From NCBI GenBank assembly GCA_965223505.1, contig CBDCWP010000040.1, positions 64,001 to 128,000 on the forward strand: a stretch of DNA of 64,000 bases. The letters run 5' to 3'. Under the pieces are notes generated by a model. It was not told the origin of the DNA. It worked only from the letters and a program-made list of their open reading frames with translations, and did not search any database. The DNA is from Planctomycetota bacterium. Lineage in GTDB: Bacteria; Planctomycetota; PLA2; JAEUHO01. This document shows, piece by piece, positions 51,356 through 63,541 of this stretch (the first letter of the stretch is position 1; every line of letters starts with the position of its first letter). The translations under genes and the position numbers were made by a program.

Positions 51356-54300
51356 CTAAGGTGGTGGGTTCATTCCGTTTCGCGTACGAACGTAGCCGAG
51401 TTCCTCGAGCCACTTCACCTCTTTTCTGACCCAGGCTGTCGGACGTGCTTTCTTCAACGGTTGTAGGAAGACAACTCGCTCGCGACGCGCAGCTGTTTCT
51501 CGGATGAAGTTCCGAAGCAGTGCCGTCCGCTGCTCACCTGTCAGTGCTCTCCACTTCGTCTGGGAGACTCGGAAGTGGCGGGCGCCAGTTGCGCGGGCCT
51601 CAACGGCCCAGTGCCGTCTCGCTGAACCGAGTACCGTAACGCCGGACTTCGTCGGCGGCGTCGGCGAAACTGGCCGCGGCCCACCAAGTTTGAAGTCCCA
51701 GGGATTCGCGGTTACTGGAGGCTTGGACGCATAGACATGACCGGCGGCTAGCCTGACGTCCAGGAACAACCCCCAAGCCTCGAGCCCCCCCAGCAGGATG
51801 CTGTAGGCCGAACTCACGAGCTCGTTGAGCTCCTTGGAGAAGGTGAGGGCTCGCTCGATGTCACCCAGCGACTTGGTGATCTCCTGCTGCACCAGACCAT
51901 TCGGATCAAGCGCGAGGTGCGCCGCTGGATCGTCATCGAGCAACGCGGCCTCGAAGCCTGGGTGCAGCATTCGATCCAGTTCCAGGCTGATTCTGTGCGC
52001 GTCAGCCGTCAGGTTGTCGTACATCGAGACGCCATGGCGTCCGTATGCACCTGACGGCCCGAAGATCCTGAGCGACTCCTGCGCCACGATCTCAAGCGAC
52101 GCGTGCACCGAGTAGAGCTGCGCGGCACGGGTCAGTAGAGCGGACTTGGTTCTCAGCGTCTCCAGGTCTTCGAGGAGGCGATCACAATCGCCGACGTTGC
52201 GCCCCCGCTCCAACGCCGATCGTGAGTCGAGCTCGATCCCCAGAAGAGACTGCCGGGCCGAGCCGATCCGCTGTGCAATCGGGGTTGCCCAACGCGCCTT
52301 GGCAGCACGCTGGACTGACTGAATCGGAAATCCGCCCTCGTTCGGATTGAAGAGCCCCTTGTGTTGCGCGGCGCCTCTAGGCCGCTGCCGTCTAACATGG
52401 CGGGCGTCGGCGGCTCTGCCCTTGAGCCTGTCCTCGAGTCTCGGTGCGGCCGCAGCAGCTTGCTCGAGCGCCGACGAGGCATCGCTGATCGCGGTCGCCG
52501 CTTCGTTCAAAGAAGCAAGCAGTTGACTCGCCTCCAGCCAGGCGCGCTCACATGGATCAGACGTTTCGTCGAGTCGCTGGAAGTCCGGAATCGGATCGCC
52601 ACCGCCTTCGGGCACTACTGTCGGCAGCCGCCGGGGCTCTTCCCGACGGTCTCTCTTCCGTTGCTCTGCGTACTCGATGCGCGCTTCGGCCCCTGCCCGC
52701 TCGGCGTCCGCAACGTCCGTCTCAAGCTCTCGGATCTCGGCATCGAGTTCCGCCCGGCGTGCTCCGGTTGTACCCAGATTCGCCTCCAACGTCCGGTCGA
52801 TGATGCCGAGCTTCGCCTCGTACTTCTTTTCGATCAGGGAGCGTTCCTTCCCGACGGGGCGACCCGTCCTCCGTCGCTCATCCCGAAGCTGCTGGAGCTC
52901 TCGCTCGAATGAACTGAGAGTCGCCTCTAGCGATGAGATTGCACGAATTCGAATCAAGATTTCGTTCTGCAAACGCTCCTTCTCGCGACGAAGCCGAGCG
53001 AGCTCAGCCTCATGCCCTGCGGTGAGTGTCCGGCGACCTTCAATCTGCGCGATTCGATGCATCGTCTCCTGGAGTTGAGCGCGAGCCTCGTCGAGGTTCG
53101 TCTCTTCCTCGGCGATCCGCTCTCGAAAGGCATCGCCAACTCGGCGCTCGGCCAGGAGCTGTCTCGCCAACCCGCCGAGCTCGCTCGGCACGCCAGGCGG
53201 CCCAGGCGTCCTCTGAGTGCCATCGGGAGCTCGCATCTGTCTGCTGGCGGGGGCGTAGCGACCAACGCCCATGAGACCCAGTCTTCTGTCAATCTCCGCG
53301 AGATCATCGACGAGTTGGTTGACTCGCGCCTTGTCAGATGTCTCTTGGATCGCTTCAATCACGCGGTTCCGCGCCCGCCCCAACTGCTGCGCATCCGGAG
53401 GCAGGACGGCTGCCTCCTCCAGCTTCAGCACCGGTTGTGCTAGCGGGATGGCTGCAGGAGCGATGGCCGGCGATCCGACCGCGGGAAGCGAGGGCAGCCT
53501 CGGCACGAGCGGCGGGAGCCCTTTGAACGCCGCCGCGCCACCTGGGTTCGGAAGCGCGTCGCTGACATTGGCCTCCACCCAGTGCTCGAGGACACCGAGG
53601 TGCCGCAGCTGCTGCTCGACAAGTCCGATCCGCCGGTCGACGCTCTGTATCTCCCCCTGAAGATCAGCGCGGCGCTTCTCGCCCCACGTCGTTCGGCGTT
53701 TGTACTCGAGCTTGGCCTTCTCACGACGCAACTCTGCAAGGGCCGCCCTCGAACTCCGAACGCGCTCCTGATCCCGCCGGGGCACTGCTTCGTCTCTGGA
53801 GCGCCAAAGTGCATGGGTAGCCTCGTCGATCTGCGCCAGCAGGTTCGCGTACTGGGCCCTGGCCGCAAGCACCGCGTCGACACTCGAGTCCGGATCATTG
53901 ATCGTAAGAAGAGCGAACTTCGCCAGCTCTTGAAGTTCGCGGAGTCCTTCCAGGTTCTCTCTGACGTCGGGGTCGTCATCCCCTTCGATGGCACGATCCC
54001 CCCGCCCTCCGTACAGCTCTTTGACCTGAGCGGATGTCAACTGCCCATACGATGCGATCTGCAGGTTCGACTGTGCTTGATCGATTCCGTTGTTGAGCTG
54101 GCCGATCTCAGCGTCAATCCTCGCCTTTCGGTCGGGATTCGCTGTGTGTCTCTTCTTGTTCTCGAGGCGCTTCCGCCTTCGCCTTAGATCAGCGACCTTT
54201 GCGCTGTTGTACCTTCGAGCTCCGGCAGCACGCGCGTTGTTGAGAGCCTTCATCGCAGCGTTGCGCTTCCGTTGCGCCTTCTGGGCGGCAGCGAGCGCCT

Positions 54301-55809
54301 TGTCGTATTTGGCTTTGCTTCCTTTGCCTTCGTTGAGCTTCTCGCGCTCCTCCGCTTCTCGCTGTATGGCGTCGTACAACTCGTTGTCGCGCTTGATAAG
54401 ATCGTCAACGGCCTTCTTGACCTTGGGGTCCTTTTCGAGAGCGCGCTCAGTCTCCTCGTCGTACCTGTCGTACTGGTCGTCGTACTTGTCTACGAGCTTA
54501 GGTGGCTCGATCTGTGCTAGGAACAGCGGCGGCGCCGTGGGCACGCCAGCCGCTTCTCGACGCGCGAAGACTTCTTCGATCATTCGCGCCGCACCCGGCC
54601 CCCGGGTCGTCTCGGTCGAGTCCCCGTCGCGCTCGCCTCTGCTTTCCCCTGGCGGCGGAGGAGGAGGTGGCGGGGCCGATGGTGCCTGGGGTGCGTACTC
54701 CCGCTCGGGCGGCGCGCCGCCGGGTGGCGTCGCCGGCCGGGACGGCTCCTCGCCGTGAGGCGGACGCATCGCCGGAACGACGACCTGAGGTGTGGGCGAA
54801 GCGGGAGGTCCAGGCGGTTTCGGCGATCCCTTGCCACGCCCCTCTCCAGGGAACCGCGGGACGCCACACTGCCATGGTGTCTCATTGAACGGGTACGGCA
54901 ACGGGTAGCTCGGAACGTAGTCCGCATCGAGCCATCGACCACTCTCATAGTCGGGCTGCGGCACCGGTAGCCACGGATACGGATACGGACATCCCCGCGG
55001 GAGGTCCCGCTGCGCAACCCAGGCGTAGTCCCCCAAGGGCCTCGGCTTCGTTGGAGGCCCGTAGAGCGACTCCATTGGAAGCTGCAAGAGCTCGTCCACC
55101 GAGCCCTCTCCAGTCAGGGCGCGCCCGAGAGACGTCTGTCGAAACGCTTCGTCGCGTTGCCGCTGAAACTCGGCCTCCCGCTCTTCGAGCTCTCGGTTCG
55201 ACGCGCCGATCGGTTGACTGTCGGTCCCGCCGATGACGGTGTAAGGCTGCCTGGCATCGGGCAGCGGCGTTGGCACTTGCACCCATCGATACTGCCAGCG
55301 GCCAGGATCCGCGTCGTCCATGTAGGCCTGCAGATGGCGGCCAGCCTTCGCGAGTTGCCGGATCTCATTGTGAGCCCGCTGTTGTGGACTTCCGAAGCGG
55401 GCGTGAACGCCCGGTGCGATGTCGTACACCTTGCGGCGCGCGTTCCACCGAAGCAGTCCGTCTTCGATGACCTGCGGCGGAGTAGCCACGGATCCCCAGC
55501 TCGGATCGAACTGAGTGATCTCATGCAGGCGCGAACGCTGCGGCGTGCTCGGCGCGTTTCCCCAGGGCTGGCGCAATCCGGGTGACACGCCGCCTCCAGG
55601 TCCCAAGAGTCTCCCGTTCCCCAGCTCGGATCGAACTGAGTGATCTCATGCAGGCGCGAACGCTGCGGCGTGCTCGGCGCGTTTCCCCAGGGCTGGCGCA
55701 ATCCGGGTGACACGCCGCCTCCAGGTCCCAAGAGTCTCCCGGCAGCGTACGGATCGAATTCCGGCCGACTCGCAACGTCTCGGACGTAAGGGTTGAAGAC
55801 ACTCGGCAT
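51356..55809 (-). CDS. Large Pro-rich/coiled-coil protein with polymorphic-toxin-like C-terminal domain; frame broken at a 125-bp duplication
   Basis: ATG 55809 coupled (TGATG) to the upstream gene; frames 55114..55809 and 51356..55606 join at the duplication; distinct basic C-terminal ~95-aa domain. Confidence 0.7.
55493..55741. repeat. Tandem duplication, two identical 124-bp copies, period 125 bp
   Basis: 55493-55616 equals 55618-55741; encodes GRLLGPGGG...HEITQFDPSWG twice. Confidence 0.92.
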
Positions 55810-56651
55810 CAGTAAGCCTTCGGGTCGATCGATTCCACGCTACTCAGCAGGCTTCTGACGCGCCGGTTGTACTCGGCCCAGGTTTCGTCAGGTCGCTTCT
55901 CCGGTCGCCTGAAGGTCGCCAGTTCAGAGGCCGGTGTCGGGGGCTGCAGCCCGTATGGCCGCACTTGCGTGCGAACGACACCCGGAGGCGAGAAGCTCGC
56001 TTGCTGCGCATGCACCATCCAGCGCTCGGCGTCGGAGAGGCCCTTCTCTCGATACATCTGCCGTTGATACGCGCCGCCGACCGGACCCGCGGTCGATGCG
56101 GAAGGGCTCGAGTAGCCGATAGGTGCTCCGGACGTCGCGTCGAAGGGCTGGCGGCGGGGCGTGACGGAACCGCCGTACGCCCCACCGACCGGATCGAACG
56201 ACGAAGGCCCTTTACTTACGGCATGCAGCGGTTCATACGCTGTCGAAGAGGGCCCGGGACTCGGCGCTGTGCGATGTTTCAAAGAGGCGACGCTGCGCCG
56301 CTCGCCATAGTAGGCGTCCTGAGGTCCGTACGAAGCCGCGATTGGGAGAGCTCTGTACGCATCCTCCATCGGCGTCGGCGGTGGAATGTACGGCTGCACG
56401 CTGCCTGGTCCCTGCGCGAGGTTCGCACGCGCTTGTTCGAGGAACCCAACGGCGCGAGCGGCTTCCTGAAGCTCACGGAGACTCTGCTCTCGGGACTGGA
56501 GGTACTCAGGCTCGGGAAGCGCTGCCTGCCCGCCTTCACCCTCGGGAAGCATCTCGGTCGTCTGAGCGTACCCAAGCGCGAGTTCGTCGCCCAGGCCGCC
56601 GAACGGGAGCGGAAGTCCGGCTTCCGTTGAGGAGACGTAGTTTCTCGGCAT
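55809..56651 (-). CDS. Low-complexity Pro/Ser/Tyr-rich hypothetical protein
   Basis: 280-aa ORF with GAAGGA RBS; FDPVGGAY/GPVGGAY repeats; C-terminal RPDETWAEYNRRV. Confidence 0.65.
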   Translation of the reverse strand: MPRNYVSSTEAGLPLPFGGLGDELALGYAQTTEMLPEGEGGQAALPEPEYLQSREQSLRELQEAARAVGFLEQARANLAQGPGSVQPYIPPPTPMEDAYRALPIAASYGPQDAYYGERRSVASLKHRTAPSPGPSSTAYEPLHAVSKGPSSFDPVGGAYGGSVTPRRQPFDATSGAPIGYSSPSASTAGPVGGAYQRQMYREKGLSDAERWMVHAQQASFSPPGVVRTQVRPYGLQPPTPASELATFRRPEKRPDETWAEYNRRVRSLLSSVESIDPKAY

Positions 56652-56696
56652 CGTCAGACCTCGATTCCTTCAAGGGACTCGTGTGAACGAGGTGTT

Positions 56697-57608
56697 CTAC
56701 GGCGTCACGTCGCTTAGCCGGATCAGCGAACCCGGCGACAGAGTCGCGAAGCCGATGTTGAGCTCCAGGTCCGCGTACAGCAGGTCCGCTTCCGCCGAAG
56801 TCCGGTGCGGACCGTCCACGCGGATGCCGGCACCGGTGTCTTCGTTGTAGAACCACACCAAGCCGCCGAACTGGGGCTCGTCGTCTCTGGGACCGAGGAT
56901 CGTCAGGTACACGGACGTCGTCGTTGCCGTCTCGGTGTCGGTGATGAAGTCCGACACGAGCACCGGCACGCCCATGTAGCACGCGACCGGCAAACCGAGG
57001 ATCGGGTCCGGCTTGACTTGCGGCGTGAAGCCGGAGGCGTGGCAAAGCGCGGTGAACGCGCTGTACTGGCCGCGGTTCATCACGAACGCGCGCGGCGTGC
57101 CGCCATCCCACGGGTAGAGCGCCTCGATCATCGAGTCCAGGTGCGCCAGCGTCAGCGCCCCGGCCGCACTGATCGTCTGCGCGGCCTCGACCAGCGTCTC
57201 GAGTCCCGCCGGCTCGTCCGTGACGTTGTCGCCATAGATGAGCTTCTCACCTACGGTGTTCCACATCGCGATCATCTTCTCTTGGATCTGCTGCTCGAAG
57301 ACGTCGTTGATCATGCTCACGTTCTGAGCGATGTCGCCGGTGACCTCGACCTTGGCGGCGATGCGGCGAAGCTCGAACTTGCGCGCCGTCGAGTCGTAGG
57401 TCGTCGCCGAAGCGTCCGCGTTACCGCCGGAGTCGATGAAGCTGGCCGTCGCCAGTGTGTCAACCTCGGTGCACTGCAGGCTGTCGCCGCGCACCATCAC
57501 TTTCGGAACCCTTGGCAGGAGCTGATCCGAGTTGTTGTTGACGAGGTACGCGCCGAGTACCTGCGGATGCGAAAGCAGTAGTGCTTGTGCCTTGGTGACG
57601 GAGGTCAT
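56697..57608 (-). CDS. HK97-fold major-capsid/encapsulin-like shell protein (shell A)
   Basis: AGGAG RBS; motif order LLPRVP, RKFELRRIAAKVEV, EKLIYGD..GL, LTLAHLDSMI, AFVMNR, YMGVPVLVSDFI, TSVY as in SrpI/family-2 encapsulin-related phage capsids. Confidence 0.78.
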   Translation of the reverse strand: MTSVTKAQALLLSHPQVLGAYLVNNNSDQLLPRVPKVMVRGDSLQCTEVDTLATASFIDSGGNADASATTYDSTARKFELRRIAAKVEVTGDIAQNVSMINDVFEQQIQEKMIAMWNTVGEKLIYGDNVTDEPAGLETLVEAAQTISAAGALTLAHLDSMIEALYPWDGGTPRAFVMNRGQYSAFTALCHASGFTPQVKPDPILGLPVACYMGVPVLVSDFITDTETATTTSVYLTILGPRDDEPQFGGLVWFYNEDTGAGIRVDGPHRTSAEADLLYADLELNIGFATLSPGSLIRLSDVTP

Positions 57609-57645
57609 TCTCTCTTCTCCTCAATGGGGACGTGTCGAAGGCACG

Positions 57646-58509
57646 TCAACAAACGACTTCTTGACGGCGTGGGATCCAGCGGAAGCTCCAGCCCGAGCCG
57701 TCATTCGGCTTGTAGGGCTGAAGCATCTGTCCCTGCTCGTACCGGGGCGCGACGCGATGGAACCACTCCATCAGCGCCGGCTCCTCCTGCGCGACGAACA
57801 CCGGGTGCATCGCCGCGGGCGAGAAACGGTAGGCGCCGAGCGTCGGATCGAACTGCATGACGACGCCCTGGTACGTAGCGGGCGGCTGCCCCCAACTCGG
57901 ATCGAAGCCGTTGACGATGCAAACGGCCTGCGAGGCGGGAAGCGGTGCCAGGTATTGACGTGTCGGCTGGATCGGCGTCGAAGGAAGGGCCGACGAGGGA
58001 TCGACCAGCCCTGCGTTGTCGAACGGGGCACCCTGAGATCCGTATACGGCCTGTTCGGTGAGCTGAAGCGGAAGCAGGCCGTAGGGCTCGCGATACGCCT
58101 CACCGGGCCTCGACACAGCGGCGAAGTTCGATCCGATGCGCGCGGGCACGGACGGACGCGCTCCGATGGGGTCAACCGTGGCACTCGGAGTCGGAATCTG
58201 TCCGTTGCCGCCCGACCCGATCGGGCCGGGGTGCGGCGATGACGTGAAGTCGTTGGCCCCTGCGCCCAACGGAACGTCGAAGTCGCTGGTCGGTCGTGAC
58301 GGCTGCGGGTGCCAAGAACGCGCAACGCCCGACCCGCCCTGATCGATCGCGAATCCGCGTTCGTCGAACTGGCGCTCTTGGCGTGAGGTCCCGAGCGAGC
58401 CGTCCAGGTCGAGTGGCGCGCCATCAAGCGAGGTGAACGCCCCCTGGCTGTTGATCACGAAGGGCCCGCAGGACCGACAAGCACAGGCAGCCTTGCTCTT
58501 GCACGCCAT
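57646..58509 (-). CDS. Pro-rich protein with Cys-rich N-terminus and C-terminal FDPSWG domain
   Basis: MACKSKAACACRSCG start; disordered middle; C-terminal domain resembles the N-terminal part of the large toxin-like protein. Confidence 0.7.
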   Translation of the reverse strand: MACKSKAACACRSCGPFVINSQGAFTSLDGAPLDLDGSLGTSRQERQFDERGFAIDQGGSGVARSWHPQPSRPTSDFDVPLGAGANDFTSSPHPGPIGSGGNGQIPTPSATVDPIGARPSVPARIGSNFAAVSRPGEAYREPYGLLPLQLTEQAVYGSQGAPFDNAGLVDPSSALPSTPIQPTRQYLAPLPASQAVCIVNGFDPSWGQPPATYQGVVMQFDPTLGAYRFSPAAMHPVFVAQEEPALMEWFHRVAPRYEQGQMLQPYKPNDGSGWSFRWIPRRQEVVC

Positions 58510-58520
58510 GGTTTCGGGTC

Positions 58521-59501
58521 CTATCCGATGTTCTCCATCCATCCGACGCAGTTCGTGCCGTGGATGAGACCGACGTTGAGTTGAAGCCCGATTTGCGACT
58601 GGTCGGTTCCGTCCTCGGGCTCGAAGTTGGAGATCACGACGCCGGGCGCATGCGTGCTCGCGATCAGGAAGCCGCGTCCGACCATCGCAGAGAGATTCTC
58701 TCGGAGCGACTCGGGCAGTCCGGCCATGTCGAACTTCATGATCAAGGCATTGCCGTCAGGCACGTAGCTCGACTCGATGACGCGCACGCGGTCGAAGAAC
58801 CACTGCTTCTTGCCCGTTACCGAATCGAGCTCGAGCGTCGAGATCCCGCTGCTGGCCATGAGCTGGACGAACTGAGCGTAGACGTCCTGCGCGAGGACCA
58901 TCGTGTATTGCTCGACGGCGCCCACCTGGACATTGAGCATCTGACGCAGGCACATCAGCCCCTTGAACGACAGCGGCATGCCGCTTCCCTCGGGCGGATC
59001 CTGGACGTTGCTCTCGGCCGTCGCGATGTCGTAGAGGCTTTCCGGCGCGTCAGCGACCGGCGTCGTCGCGAAGAACGACGTGTAGGCAGTGGTCAGCATC
59101 ATCTCTGCCAGAGCACGCAGCGCGACATCGACGACGTTGTAGTCGGACTCGCCGATCTCTACGGCGTCATCGATGGTGATCTTGCACGCGAGCTGGCTCA
59201 GTTCCACTGTGCTTGACTGCCACTGCGGCGGATCCGTGTTGATCGACGTGCCGTCGTTGTTGCTCCAAACGGCGTTCGTAACCCACGCATCGAGATTCGA
59301 CAGCGCCGATACGGACACCTTCGACGTCTCGAACTGTGCCCACGGCAACGGTGCGGCCAGCAGCTCGCGGTCGCTGATGACGAGCCCGGTCTCCTGCGGC
59401 GGCTCGACAACCTGCTCACGATTCCAGATGGCGTTCGGGCGGTAGCCTGGTGTCGAGTAGGAGAAGAGCGCCAGCGCTTCGGACTTGGTGGGACCGGCCA
59501 T
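58521..59501 (-). CDS. Second, divergent HK97-fold capsid/encapsulin-like protein (shell B)
   Basis: N-terminus TKSEALAL parallels shell A TKAQALLL; LLAAPLPW, VELSQLACKITID, FDRVRVIESSYVP, LQLNVGL align positionally with shell A. Confidence 0.6.
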   Translation of the reverse strand: MAGPTKSEALALFSYSTPGYRPNAIWNREQVVEPPQETGLVISDRELLAAPLPWAQFETSKVSVSALSNLDAWVTNAVWSNNDGTSINTDPPQWQSSTVELSQLACKITIDDAVEIGESDYNVVDVALRALAEMMLTTAYTSFFATTPVADAPESLYDIATAESNVQDPPEGSGMPLSFKGLMCLRQMLNVQVGAVEQYTMVLAQDVYAQFVQLMASSGISTLELDSVTGKKQWFFDRVRVIESSYVPDGNALIMKFDMAGLPESLRENLSAMVGRGFLIASTHAPGVVISNFEPEDGTDQSQIGLQLNVGLIHGTNCVGWMENIG

Positions 59502-59578
59502 TTCGAGCACCCGTACGACGACATCGCCTCACCCGTCGTACTCCCGAGGTCAGCCTTGGAAACCCACCTTCTCGACAA

Positions 59579-59677
59579 GCGGGCAACTGCCGGGCAACGT
59601 CCGGGCAACGTCCGGGCAACGACCGGGCAACGACCGGGCAACGTCCGGGCAACGACCGGGCAAGAGCCGGGCAAGCT
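59579..59677. repeat. Nine tandem 11-bp direct repeats, consensus CCGGGCAACG(T/A)
   Basis: Six exact-consensus units at 59590-59655 plus three degenerate flanking units, in a divergent intergenic region. Confidence 0.92.
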
Positions 59678-59738: not shown

Positions 59739-60227
59739 ATGACCACGAAGCCCATCCTCACGAGAGCTCCCGGCAATCCGTGGTTCGAGACCGAGGACCT
59801 GGCAGGCGACGTGAGCGCCGGAAGGGTCCGGGTCGCGACTATGGTCGGCTTCTCGCTGACCGGCACGGGCACGGCGACGGACGGTGTCTCGTGGGCCACG
59901 GAGCCGGCGCTGATCACGGACCTGGCCTTCTCGGTGACCCCGGCTGCGGCGGGCCTGAACGGCGGCAACCTGTTCATCGAGGTCAATGCCGCGGGGCAGT
60001 CCGCGTTCTCGAGCGCCGACGGCTGGGTCCAGGTGATGCCGACCTACCACTGGCCCGCGGGCGGTGTGCAGGCCTACGAGAGCAACGTGCTGGGCAAGAA
60101 CCACGTCCTGACAGTGTCCGGGACCGGCGTGGCGCGAATTCGCGTAACGGCAACGCACGTTGGCGGTTCCGACGTCGTCGAAGTCTTCGCCGGCGTGACC
60201 GTTCTGGCGGCCAAGCCCACCTGCTAG
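59739..60227 (+). CDS. Hypothetical beta-strand-rich protein (162 aa)
   Basis: CAGGAGG RBS; G/T/V/A-rich alternating pattern; no signal peptide. Confidence 0.7.
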   Translation: MTTKPILTRAPGNPWFETEDLAGDVSAGRVRVATMVGFSLTGTGTATDGVSWATEPALITDLAFSVTPAAAGLNGGNLFIEVNAAGQSAFSSADGWVQVMPTYHWPAGGVQAYESNVLGKNHVLTVSGTGVARIRVTATHVGGSDVVEVFAGVTVLAAKPTC

Positions 60228-60406
60228 ACGAACCCGGCGACCGGGCCCCAAGTGCGATGCGGCACGGCAGGGCCCAGCTGGCGCTCTCCGACTGTCTCGT
60301 TTTGCAACACGGGCACTCGCCCAAGCCGGACGTCCCGCCGCGAAACAGATCGGCCTCCCGCTCGGCTCGCATCGCCGTACGCTGGAGTTGGGAGAGGCGA
60401 AATGGA

Positions 60407-61138
60407 ATGCGTCGGGTTGTTGTCGTAGACGGCGGCGCCTCGATACGAGGCGTATTGGGCGATCTGTTTCGACGTCCGGCCTGGGCGCCGCTCGTCGAAG
60501 TCACTTCCGGCGAGCGCGGGATCCAGGCGCTGCGACTGGCACGCCCTGATCTCTCAATCGTAAACGTCGTACCCGCGATGGAGGCAAGCGCGCTCGATTT
60601 CATTGAGACCGTGCGGCACGATCAACTCCTCGATCGCTGCGCGATCGTCGCGCTGCTGCCTGTCGTCAGTACCGAGTGCGCGAGGCGGTTCCACGAGGGC
60701 GCCGATCTGTGCATGTCGCCTGAGTGGGTCGTCGAGTCGCCGGGGACGTTTCACTCGTTCGTCGAGTGCGTGCTCGAGCGTCGCGACGGTAGTACCACGC
60801 CGGTGTTGCATGTGGATTCGGGGCGGCAAACGGCCAGGTACGGCAACACAGAGCACGCGCTCTCGGAGTGTGAACTCCGCATCCTCTCGCGGATCATCGA
60901 GACGACCGAGAGGGTCGTGACGCATGCGGAGCTGGCGATGGCGATCTCGAGAAGCGACGACGAGAACGGGCGCAAGGCGGTGCGGCGAGCTGTCGCGGGG
61001 ATACGCTCCAAGCTCAAGTCCTGCCCCGGCCTCATCGAAACGGTGTCGGGGGTCGGGTATAGGGCAGGAACGAGGTTTCAGATCCAAGTCGCCCGGTCTT
61101 TCCGGCGACATTCGAGGGCGTTGCGCGGTGACGCGTAG
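60407..61138 (+). CDS. Atypical OmpR/PhoB-family response regulator (pseudo-receiver plus winged helix)
   Basis: VVVVDG, PDLSIVN (Asp replaced by Asn), GADLC without the Lys; wHTH LSECELRIL..VVTHAEL..IETVSGVGYR. Confidence 0.78.
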   Translation: MRRVVVVDGGASIRGVLGDLFRRPAWAPLVEVTSGERGIQALRLARPDLSIVNVVPAMEASALDFIETVRHDQLLDRCAIVALLPVVSTECARRFHEGADLCMSPEWVVESPGTFHSFVECVLERRDGSTTPVLHVDSGRQTARYGNTEHALSECELRILSRIIETTERVVTHAELAMAISRSDDENGRKAVRRAVAGIRSKLKSCPGLIETVSGVGYRAGTRFQIQVARSFRRHSRALRGDA

Positions 61139-62668: not shown

Positions 62669-63379
62669 TCAGTAGTCGGTGCGGCAGGCACGGGCTGTAT
62701 TTTCGCGGCGACCCCCGACCATCCGCTTCACGACCTGGACGTGCCAGCACTTGGCGTCGCGGGGATTGCGAGCCTCCGCGATCAGCACGCGCCCGATCCG
62801 GCGCAGCGACAACCCCGCCGCCCGCAGCTCCCGTGCCCGCGCGACCGTGGCCTGCTCGTCGGCATCCTCGACGACCCTTCCGTCCTCGAGCCGGTAGCCA
62901 TAGGGAACGCCCCCGACACGCTCGCCATTCGCTTTCTTGACCGCCAGCGCGGCCTTCGTTCGAGACCGGATGATCGCGCGCTCGTACTGCGCGAACACGT
63001 CGATGACGCCTCTAAGCAGCTGCGCCTCGGGGCCGTCGCCGTTGCCGGTGCCGTCGGCGGACTGCACCCGCGCGCCGTGCCGCTCGCACAGCCGCTCGAC
63101 CAAGGCGGCGGTTAGTACGTCCCGGGCGAGGCGGTCACGCTTCGCCACAACCAGCAGACTGGCGCCTTCGCGCCTTACCGAATCGATCGCAGCGACGAGC
63201 TCGGGTCGCTTCTCGAACGCCGCGCCGCCGGACACGCCACTATCGAAGTGCCAGGCGACGACCACTACATCGTTTCGCTTTGCCCACGTACGGATCGCCT
63301 CGCGCTGTGCCTCGGGTGAGAGGTCCTGGCGGGACGTGGAGCAGCGTAGGTAGGCGATGGCGCAGGTCGGCTCGCTCAT
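62669..63379 (-). CDS. Serine recombinase (resolvase catalytic domain plus short recombinase-like C-terminus)
   Basis: AYLRCSTSRQ catalytic Ser, DSGVSG, RPEL, KRDRLAR, AQYER..IRSRT, GGVPYGY. Confidence 0.92.
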   Translation of the reverse strand: MSEPTCAIAYLRCSTSRQDLSPEAQREAIRTWAKRNDVVVVAWHFDSGVSGGAAFEKRPELVAAIDSVRREGASLLVVAKRDRLARDVLTAALVERLCERHGARVQSADGTGNGDGPEAQLLRGVIDVFAQYERAIIRSRTKAALAVKKANGERVGGVPYGYRLEDGRVVEDADEQATVARARELRAAGLSLRRIGRVLIAEARNPRDAKCWHVQVVKRMVGGRRENTARACRTDY

Positions 63380-63541
63380 GTGGGCCTCCAAGGGCGAGGC
63401 GCATGAGGGCGTTGAGGGCCCGGGAGATCAAGGGAACTCAGCCTGTGGGGCGGCAAGCGCGGGGCGGTTTGTCTGTTTCGCGTCGGATCTGCGCCCGTTC
63501 TCTGTCCGACTCCCGCTTCCGCCTCTACGACGCTTGTCAGC

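Follow-up and report, generated by a model that had tools for sequence, protein, structure and literature searches.

The DNA analysed here is a 64,000-nucleotide stretch (hereafter the window; positions 64,001 to 128,000 of contig CBDCWP010000040.1, assembly GCA_965223505.1) from a bacterium of the phylum Planctomycetota. On its minus strand, between positions 51356 and 59510, lies a row of five genes encoding, in order, a capsid-like shell protein (shell 1), a small cysteine-rich protein, a second capsid-like shell protein (shell 2), a proline-rich protein and a giant protein. Our subject is the FDPxWG domain, named after its signature motif, which is present in both the small and the giant protein and which an earlier reading of the sequence (the original prediction) had proposed to be a cargo-loading or assembly domain for the shell. 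The genes and features of the locus are as follows.

59739..60227, plus strand: beta-rich gene, 162 amino acids (aa), divergent from the operon, with AGGAGG 6 nt 5′ of its ATG; conserved, of no family
58521..59510, minus strand: shell gene 1 (P0005/P0071), 326-329 aa, divergent HK97-type capsid-like
57646..58509, minus strand: small Cys-rich protein (P0004), 287 aa from the database start; 57646..58542 as an open reading frame (ORF)
57649..57954, minus strand: FDPxWG domain copy 1 (envelope of a hidden Markov model, HMM), residues 186-287 of the 287-aa protein
56697..57608, minus strand: shell gene 2 (P0003), 303 aa, HK97-fold major-capsid-like
55809..56651, minus strand: Pro-rich protein (P0002), 280 aa, domain-free
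51356..55809, minus strand: giant protein gene (P0001), start most likely ATG 55809; the assembly ORF, 51356..55606, has 1416 aa
55226..55534, minus strand: FDPxWG domain copy 2 (HMM), residues 25-127 of the 1416-aa ORF
54857..55039, minus strand: CPYPYP...PWxC module, Cys-bracketed and Pro/Tyr-rich, about residues 190-250 of the giant protein
55493..55741, no strand: perfect tandem duplication of 125 bases, 2.0 copies, at the 5′ end of the giant gene (Tandem Repeats Finder, TRF)

The FDPSWG sequence occurs at residue 213 of the small-protein ORF 57646..58542 (base 57906) and at residue 33 of the giant-protein ORF 51356..55606 (base 55510), and the two copies run to an R-W-I end near 57670 and an R-W-V end near 55277, exactly where the original prediction had placed them. 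Its claim that the two proteins share one collinear domain is borne out by pairwise comparison, by profile and by a shuffle test. BLASTP of the whole small protein against the giant protein gives a collinear match of 32.7 bits (E 3e-5; 24 of 93 positions identical, 26%) between residues 202-290 of the former, in the numbering of the longer ORF, and 22-109 of the latter. An HMM built from the C-termini of seven proteins of the small class defined below, with zero large-class rows, matches the giant protein over residues 23-109 at 23.9 bits and P0014, its one detected relative, at 28.1 bits; for the isolated N-terminal segment of the giant protein the score is 31.3 bits, which 0 of 2000 shuffles reach (highest 8.4). 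A mixed alignment of 10 rows (A2) has an invariant F-D-P-x-W-G-x-P-P, Y and P, with R, Q-x-Y and W-x-x-R-W nearly invariant. By these comparisons the small protein is homologous at its C-terminus to the N-terminal part of the giant one, and these two stretches are the only complete copies of the domain in the 5.15-Mb genome (61,851 six-frame segments), both within the operon. A further claim, that short FDP/FNP motifs recur throughout the non-shell proteins, holds in part: F[DN]P is over-represented relative to shuffled sequences, and FNPY and FDPY fall within the true N-terminus of the giant gene, but FDPY, kept in P0054 and in L001 (a locus described below), is absent from the other large and mid-size proteins scanned, and FDPTLG is merely part of the domain.

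The domain defines a small and architecturally diverse family. In a word-indexed collection of 5.8 billion proteins the small protein has seven relatives, and a similarity search with the N-terminus of the giant protein found two; the A2 profile, run against 1,835,955,588 representatives, recovers 61 proteins at E<=1e-3, 41 of them at E<=1e-10. Members fall into a small class (~110-450 aa, Cys-rich, domain C-terminal), a mid-size class (~230-360 aa, domain near the N-terminus or mid-protein) and a large class (750-1700 aa, domain at about residues 65-235), with two copies of the domain in P0018 and one and a half in P0014. The small class is represented by 40 of the 61 members in alignment A3, the other 21 being omitted as mid-size or large. 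The small protein of the window starts with a CxC..C motif, continues with a disordered middle that is rich in Gly and Pro and contains P-I-G-x-R-P, and ends in the domain, bracketed by Cys197 and Cys287. Across the class these two Cys are nearly invariant; 28 of the 40 have P[ILF]GxRP in the disordered middle and 22 the N-terminal CxC cluster, the sequences without those motifs being mostly shorter than 175 aa and possibly fragments, and G-x-G-S-G-G is a further conserved Gly-rich linear motif of the class.

Large-class proteins lack the bracketing Cys pair and are conserved only in their N-terminal ~250 residues, which hold in succession a linear motif (G-P-G-G-x-V-x-P-G-L-R-x-P-F/W-G), the domain with a P-Y-x-V-L-G strand downstream of it, and the CPYP module. 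The linear motif, or its RxP[FW]G core, occurs in 9 of the 22 large and mid-size proteins scanned, and the CPYPYP...PWxC module, by strict pattern, in six of them including that of the window (twice in P0014); the module, whose fuller pattern is CPYPYPxLPVP ... PWxC, is visible in 8 of the 11 rows of the large-class alignment. Six of eight other large proteins are 35-44% identical to residues 1-260 of the window protein and the other two align over shorter N-terminal pieces, and beyond about residue 260 only P0054 and P0065 align with it, in the coiled coil. PASTA repeats are normally extracytoplasmic, and P0070 (1688 aa) carries seven of them after the domain, oddly given that setting with no signal peptide recognisable by eye. 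When 17 further members were compared with Pfam, the domain region had no match and Pfam domains appeared elsewhere in two proteins only, as the PASTA repeats of P0070 and as an ISL3 transposase in P0047, the latter probably due to a chimeric gene call. The domain itself, taken from P0004 and from the N-terminus of P0001, matches no family in Pfam-A, NCBIfam or PHROGs, and a search of the ESM Atlas with it gave no usable match. Its invariant residues are aromatic, Pro or Gly, and no enzyme family is matched. No annotated family yet exists for the domain, for the CPYP module or for the 162-aa beta-rich protein, and each could already be defined as one.

That the genes flanking the domain proteins encode HK97-type shell proteins, as the original prediction took them to, is confirmed by sequence profiles, and it is by such profiles that the HK97-fold shell belonging to the definition of an encapsulin is recognised here. 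Shell 2 (P0003) passes PF05065 Phage_capsid (33.1 bits, cut-off 24.2), scores 29.1 bits against SU10_MCP and matches the phrog_212 major head protein at E 1.7e-22. A profile of its family (A5; seven rows, three close and four distant, drawn from 22 places in the phylum sample introduced below) aligns full length with solved Family 2A encapsulins, namely MMP-I (8won, 9ksl, 8wol; E ~4e-7) and SrpI (6x8m; E 7.5e-4), the whole Family 2A set including 8t6r ranging from E 3.5e-7 to 8e-4. As this profile reaches the structures but P0003 fails the curated cut-off given below, P0003 is a distant relative of Family 2A and not a member. TALE (transcription activator-like effector) rows among the same results were set aside as repeat noise without a passing stretch. 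Shell 1, for which eleven relatives were found, has no match in Pfam, PHROGs or NCBIfam and none by sequence in the PDB, yet its profile (A4) aligns with A5 over 287 columns (97.9% probability, E 4e-13), and plain HMMs of the two shells cross-match at 23-38 bits where BLASTP sees nothing. Given alignment at the profile level without a BLASTP signal, shells 1 and 2 are therefore, by this measure, anciently diverged HK97-type paralogues. The domain profile, compared by hhalign with both shell profiles, is unrelated to them (probability 0.1-0.2%).

Structure models are available for both classes. AlphaFold2 gave a predicted local distance difference test (pLDDT) confidence of 87-98 (10-residue blocks) over residues 191-287 of the small protein with the small-class alignment, the middle of the protein lying mostly below 60, and with the 11-row large-class alignment a pLDDT of 80-93 over residues 21-130 and of 80-91 over the CPYP module. 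Both models show the same succession of elements, two short strands, one or two helices and a longer beta hairpin, with one strand more in the large class, and both copies are predicted to fold alike as an independently folding module. In the small-class model Cys197 and Cys287 would be able to meet, two-residue bridges standing beside each in the DSSP string. Foldseek found no match at E<=1e-3 in the PDB with either model, or in BFVD with the small-protein model, and with VIA-align, against 48,161 chains of a representative PDB set, one model reached at best Z 3.4 (60 residues, root-mean-square deviation 3.1) and the second 2.8; the rows of the fold search with the large-class model concentrate on residues 40-168 and barely cover the CPYP module. 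A complex prediction of shell 2, shell 1 and residues 110-287 of the small protein returned an interface score (ipSAE) of 0.00 in both runs, with shallow alignments and no controls, and used single protomers, hence no three-fold or five-fold sites.

The models also show, directly upstream of the domain in both classes, low-pLDDT regions that carry the conserved motifs and that are Pro/Gly-rich in the small class. It is therefore conceivable that targeting to the shell is done by the linear motifs (P-I-G-x-R-P and G-x-G-S-G-G, or the large-class GPGG motif), as in the cargo-loading domains of Family 2 encapsulins, and that the domain is a shared functional, oligomerisation or ligand-binding core which joins the small and giant proteins to one another or binds a common partner. 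The position of these regions fits such a division of labour, as do the frequencies of P[ILF]GxRP in the small class and of GPGG/RxP[FW]G in the large and mid-size proteins (28/40 and 9/22). On the other hand, conservation is highest in the domain in every member, and the short ones contain hardly anything beyond it; the exact targeting motif of Family 2 encapsulins is found in 0 of 72 proteins, and there is no sign of a ligand or of catalysis. We regard this arrangement, the main rival to shell anchoring by the domain, as rather unlikely.

Wherever the DNA context of the domain is readable, it adjoins shell genes. Besides the window, a 4.9-kb contig of a metagenome-assembled genome (MAG; L001 in G401) carries the beta-rich gene, shell 1, the small protein, shell 2, a Pro-rich protein and the domain-bearing start of a large protein, in a gene order identical to that of the window; the MAG is labelled Acidimicrobiaceae, and the contig may be mis-binned. 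G184, a genome of the same family as that of the window, has the beta-rich gene, shell 1, the small protein, shell 2 and a 267-aa mid-size domain protein up to the contig end, with a large-class fragment on a separate 1.8-kb contig, and in a 1.2-kb locus (L004) the small gene precedes the beginning of shell 2. Shell identity to the genes of the window is 25-72% across these same-order genomes. In all three loci with both shell genes, a gene for a domain protein comes after either shell gene, as its immediate neighbour or one gene further on, and the pairing is constant, shell 1 with the small protein and shell 2 with a mid-size or giant one, which suggests that a two-gene module of shell and anchor protein was duplicated long ago. 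For four of the seven small-protein matches, moreover, the longest contig is equal in size to that of a shell-1 match (238335, 6894, 4922 and 13412).

The co-occurrence check proposed with the original prediction points the same way. Among 401 genomes sampled evenly from the phylum to which the window belongs, the domain is found only in G000 and G184, both of which have this shell pair; a match in G342 (E 9e-4) was ruled out, since it reaches 16 bits over profile positions 35-94 with neither FDPxWG nor W-x-x-R-W. Among 401 genomes of the class of G401 the domain occurs in G401 only, and a metagenome scan with the small-class profile (A1) returned a single 1.2-kb contig. With the domain in so few sampled genomes of the phylum and the class, the system is therefore rare and patchy. 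Distant shell-2-like genes are present in 18 of the 401 phylum genomes, 16 of these being domain-free. Three such loci, L018 (G213:C21, 9209-11002), L020 (G034:C21, 9551-10483) and L019 (G083:C6, 9807-10745), have no surrounding phage genes and no FDPxWG domain, with two of the capsid genes in tandem in G213, and may be further orphan HK97-type systems.

A scan of genome contigs with A1 found two loci, one of which (L002; 11-kb contig of a Myxococcales MAG) holds at 1125-1376 a 33-residue N-terminal fragment of the domain (NGFDPRWGTPP..., 22.9 bits). As the fragment stands behind a stop codon we treat it as a chance match or decayed remnant and not as a true domain locus. Were it taken at face value, with no shell gene nearby, and with most of the 61 members lacking readable genomic context, one could argue that the domain is unconnected with the shell and is a general protein- or cell-envelope-binding module duplicated by chance within one island. 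The same gene order in three genomes whose shells have diverged to 25-72% identity, the confinement of the only two genome-wide copies to the operon, and the restriction of the domain, in the phylum sample, to genomes with the shell pair all speak against this, and we think it very improbable.

The surroundings of the operon raise the different question of whether it belongs to a prophage. On its right-hand side are found a response-regulator-type gene, then a serine recombinase (62669-63391) and an IS66 element (TnpB, transposase), and further on a 617-aa QueC-like/DpnII-MboI-like protein, a terminase, a ParB-methyltransferase fusion, a helicase loader, a tyrosine integrase and an ImmA-like regulator, the mobile cluster spanning 62669-63391 of the window and G000:C40:128100-144200 (L003, L027). 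On this side the large terminase (phrog_2, E 5.5e-36) lies 11 kb and the tyrosine integrase 18 kb from the operon. Contig C3 holds a second copy of the terminase, 76% identical, whereas the operon is single-copy, and G184 (92% complete) gave no match with this terminase as query; it is unlikely to be part of the shell system and probably belongs to a neighbouring, separate mobile element. No portal, terminase, protease or tail gene was found in the operon or in the ~8 kb to its left, and the flanking ORFs scanned, which were picked by size and by GC content at third codon positions (GC3), included none recognisable as a portal, protease, tail or lysis gene. Likewise, the 17 ORFs of G184 scanned over the 13 kb upstream and the operon gave no match to phage morphogenesis genes, and IMG/VR contigs held no relative when searched with P0003, A1 or A4.

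Phage fibres have a conserved N-terminal virion anchor and a variable C-terminus, and the large class of FDPxWG proteins resembles them in this respect, as it does capsid decoration proteins with a constant anchor and a variable distal part, although the domain itself gave no significant sequence or fold match in the searches of the PDB and BFVD. The operon might accordingly be the structural module of a released virus-like or mobile-element particle, on which the domain anchors cement (the small protein) and fibre (the large protein) to the outside of the capsid, the large class forming a coiled-coil stalk with a variable distal receptor-binding part. Several observations would suit such a particle: the seven PASTA repeats of P0070; the Cys pairs that bracket the small-class domain and the CPYP module, suggestive of disulfide staples for an oxidising milieu; the best NCBIfam match of shell 2, which is a phage capsid; the serine recombinase, IS66, terminase and integrase to the right; and a GC3 over about 47.5-62 kb below that of host genes (~0.70 for the three non-shell genes of the operon and the flanks, with 0.84-0.87 for both shell genes, against 0.80-0.90 for host genes to the left). 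Against it stand the lack of portal, protease, tail and lysis genes among the ORFs scanned in and near the operon, the absence of an IMG/VR relative, the 17 ORFs of G184 with no morphogenesis match, and a terminase that has a second copy here and was not found in that genome with the query used. On balance a virion module seems unlikely.

Several described HK97-type systems come close to the operon. By the general definition, an encapsulin has an HK97-fold protein that self-assembles into a closed icosahedral shell, dedicated cargo with an element targeting it to that shell, and no virion genes such as portal, terminase, protease or tail nearby; as a targeting element the operon offers a candidate, the domain with its linear motifs, whose genomic linkage to the shell genes is strong. 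Encapsulins are classified into Families 1-4 (PMC8346489), and the targeting signals known for Families 1 and 2 are short motifs in disordered regions (PMC11550324, PMC8346489), the cargo-loading domains of Family 2 being disordered, Pro/Gly/Ala-rich and bound at the interior three-fold axis (PMC11550324, on Family 2B). The operon is Family 2-like in several ways. The shell-2 profile matches solved Family 2A shells from end to end; the proteins encoded next to the shells contain long disordered stretches, rich in Pro and Gly, in which short motifs are conserved; no portal or protease is recognised, the sole nearby terminase lying in what looks like a separate element; and there are two shell genes, as is often the case in Family 2B operons (PMC8346489). 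It differs from Family 2 in that shell 2 falls far below the curated Family 2A cut-off (24 against 380 bits), that its two shells are alike only at the profile level where those of Family 2B are described as ~60-75% identical (PMC8346489), that the operon has no cyclic nucleotide monophosphate (cNMP)-binding domain, and that no desulfurase, terpene cyclase, polyprenyl transferase or xylulose kinase cargo was seen in the ORFs scanned. Nor does the shared element resemble a Family 2 cargo-loading domain: it is folded (pLDDT 87-98 and 80-93) with only its flanking linkers disordered, and the GPxGLGT/GPxGxGT motif is found in 0 of 72 proteins. The likeness to encapsulin targeting peptides on which the original prediction drew is therefore a loose one, known signals being short disordered motifs where we have a folded domain.

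Family 3, the "natural product" encapsulins, is characterised by PF05065-annotated shells in biosynthetic clusters without adjacent phage morphogenesis genes (PMC8346489). The shell of the window is likewise called by PF05065 and has no such adjacent genes, but there are no biosynthetic genes near the operon, a separation made on descriptive grounds. The best family-level matches of shell 2 are HK97-fold phage capsids (of the epsilon15 gp7 type, and phrog_212), from which it differs in falling below the NCBIfam cut-off, and the operon differs from those phages in having no recognised portal, protease, scaffold or tail gene and no IMG/VR match. Phage T4 offers a further parallel, since its gp23 and gp24 are likewise two diverged capsid paralogues in one module, serving as the hexamer and pentamer proteins of the capsid.

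Taking these lines together, we propose, as the reading with the most support and with a probability of roughly 0.45, that the FDPxWG domain is a family-specific folded module that fastens otherwise unrelated proteins to a two-paralogue HK97-type shell. The domain, probably together with the conserved Gly/Pro-rich motifs just upstream, would dock on the shell, so that the small Cys-rich protein and the long coiled-coil protein would be carried by the particle, and the two shell paralogues could serve as hexamer and pentamer by analogy with gp23 and gp24. Whether the anchored proteins would be held inside as cargo or outside as decoration or fibre is the key alternative within this proposal. 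A constant N-terminal module followed by a variable remainder in the large class fits an anchoring role.

A number of points weigh against this anchoring proposal. The known encapsulin signals are disordered peptides, unlike the folded FDPxWG domain, and the Family 2 motif GPxGxGT occurs in none of the 72 proteins scanned. The seven PASTA repeats of P0070 fit poorly with enclosed cargo because of their normally extracytoplasmic setting. Shell 2 falls below the NCBIfam cut-offs both for the epsilon15-type capsid, its best NCBIfam match (58.9 against 75), and for encap_f2a (NF041162; 24.2 against 380 bits), so that the assembly of a shell is itself a presumption. Finally, L002 has no shell gene in its 11 kb, and strict co-occurrence rests on three full loci, one partial locus and equal contig sizes, set against 61 members.

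The 5′ end of the giant gene deserves comment, since the frame is broken there in the assembly. When read from ATG 55809, which shares its A with the end of the upstream stop codon, it passes FNPY, FDPY, the GPGG motif and FDPSWG and is then shifted by the second copy of the 125-base tandem duplication (55493-55741, 100% matches by TRF). An extra segment of 134 bases (55482-55615), mostly duplicated, is responsible for the break. Logan contigs from three runs of one sample (depths 2, 4.7 and 6.8), which may share their source sample with the assembly and are not independent of it, join 55481 to 55616 and omit the 134 bases. The segment-free form is in frame from 55809 to 51356, by arithmetic 1439 codons, and reads W-G-T-P-P, which fits the family consensus, where the version in the window has a three-residue insertion seen in no other row of the alignment. 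Because the 134-base segment is missing from the Logan contigs and creates a unique insertion, it most probably arose in assembly or represents a minor or strain variant.

The remaining genes of the locus are less easily placed. The stop codon of P0002 overlaps the ATG of the giant gene by one base (TGATG). Its N-terminal 108 residues are homologous to the gene in the same position in L001 (E 3e-9), and its N-terminus is weakly like that of the domain-bearing P0068 (E 0.001); that it might hide a copy of the domain was ruled out, the domain HMM scoring 0.9 bits. The resemblance to P0068 and the one-base overlap raise the possibility that P0002 and the giant protein derive from one split gene. 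On the other side of the operon, a beta-rich protein of ~160 aa with a terminal Cys adjoins the system in three genomes (59739-60227, plus strand, in the window; L001:3-404, minus; L017:12984-13517, plus). The copy in the window is 44% identical to that of L001 and 20% identical to the ORF upstream of shell 1 in G184, and has no match in Pfam or PHROGs, the databases searched; the system probably includes it as a sixth component. Shell 1 and this gene are separated by 228 bases, within which, at 59580-59674, an 11-base unit, CGGGCAACGAC, is repeated in tandem (8.6 copies), and its spacing of one helical turn suggests binding sites for a regulator. A response-regulator-type gene with a Trans_reg_C domain lies just past these repeats, within ORF 59780-61138.

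We found this type of operon described in no title or abstract of the literature searched, a limited collection. It may represent an undescribed class of HK97-derived bacterial particle, with two diverged capsid paralogues each paired with a folded-anchor protein, that displays or encloses exchangeable giant proteins such as coiled-coil stalks and PASTA arrays; on this speculative and, in our estimate, doubtful view it would be a domesticated, tail-less virus-like particle whose polymorphic fibres or payloads serve to bind cell-wall material or other cells and not metabolism. To our knowledge, the encapsulin-type systems studied so far all load enzymes or ferritin-like proteins via short disordered peptides. 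If the anchoring proposal is true, a folded, portable shell-anchor domain on non-enzymatic giant proteins would give HK97-type shells a new principle of loading or decoration and might provide engineered nanocages with a new tag. The operon is also a natural case of two very divergent shell paralogues in one system, which is relevant to the evolution of two-component or larger shells out of phage capsids.

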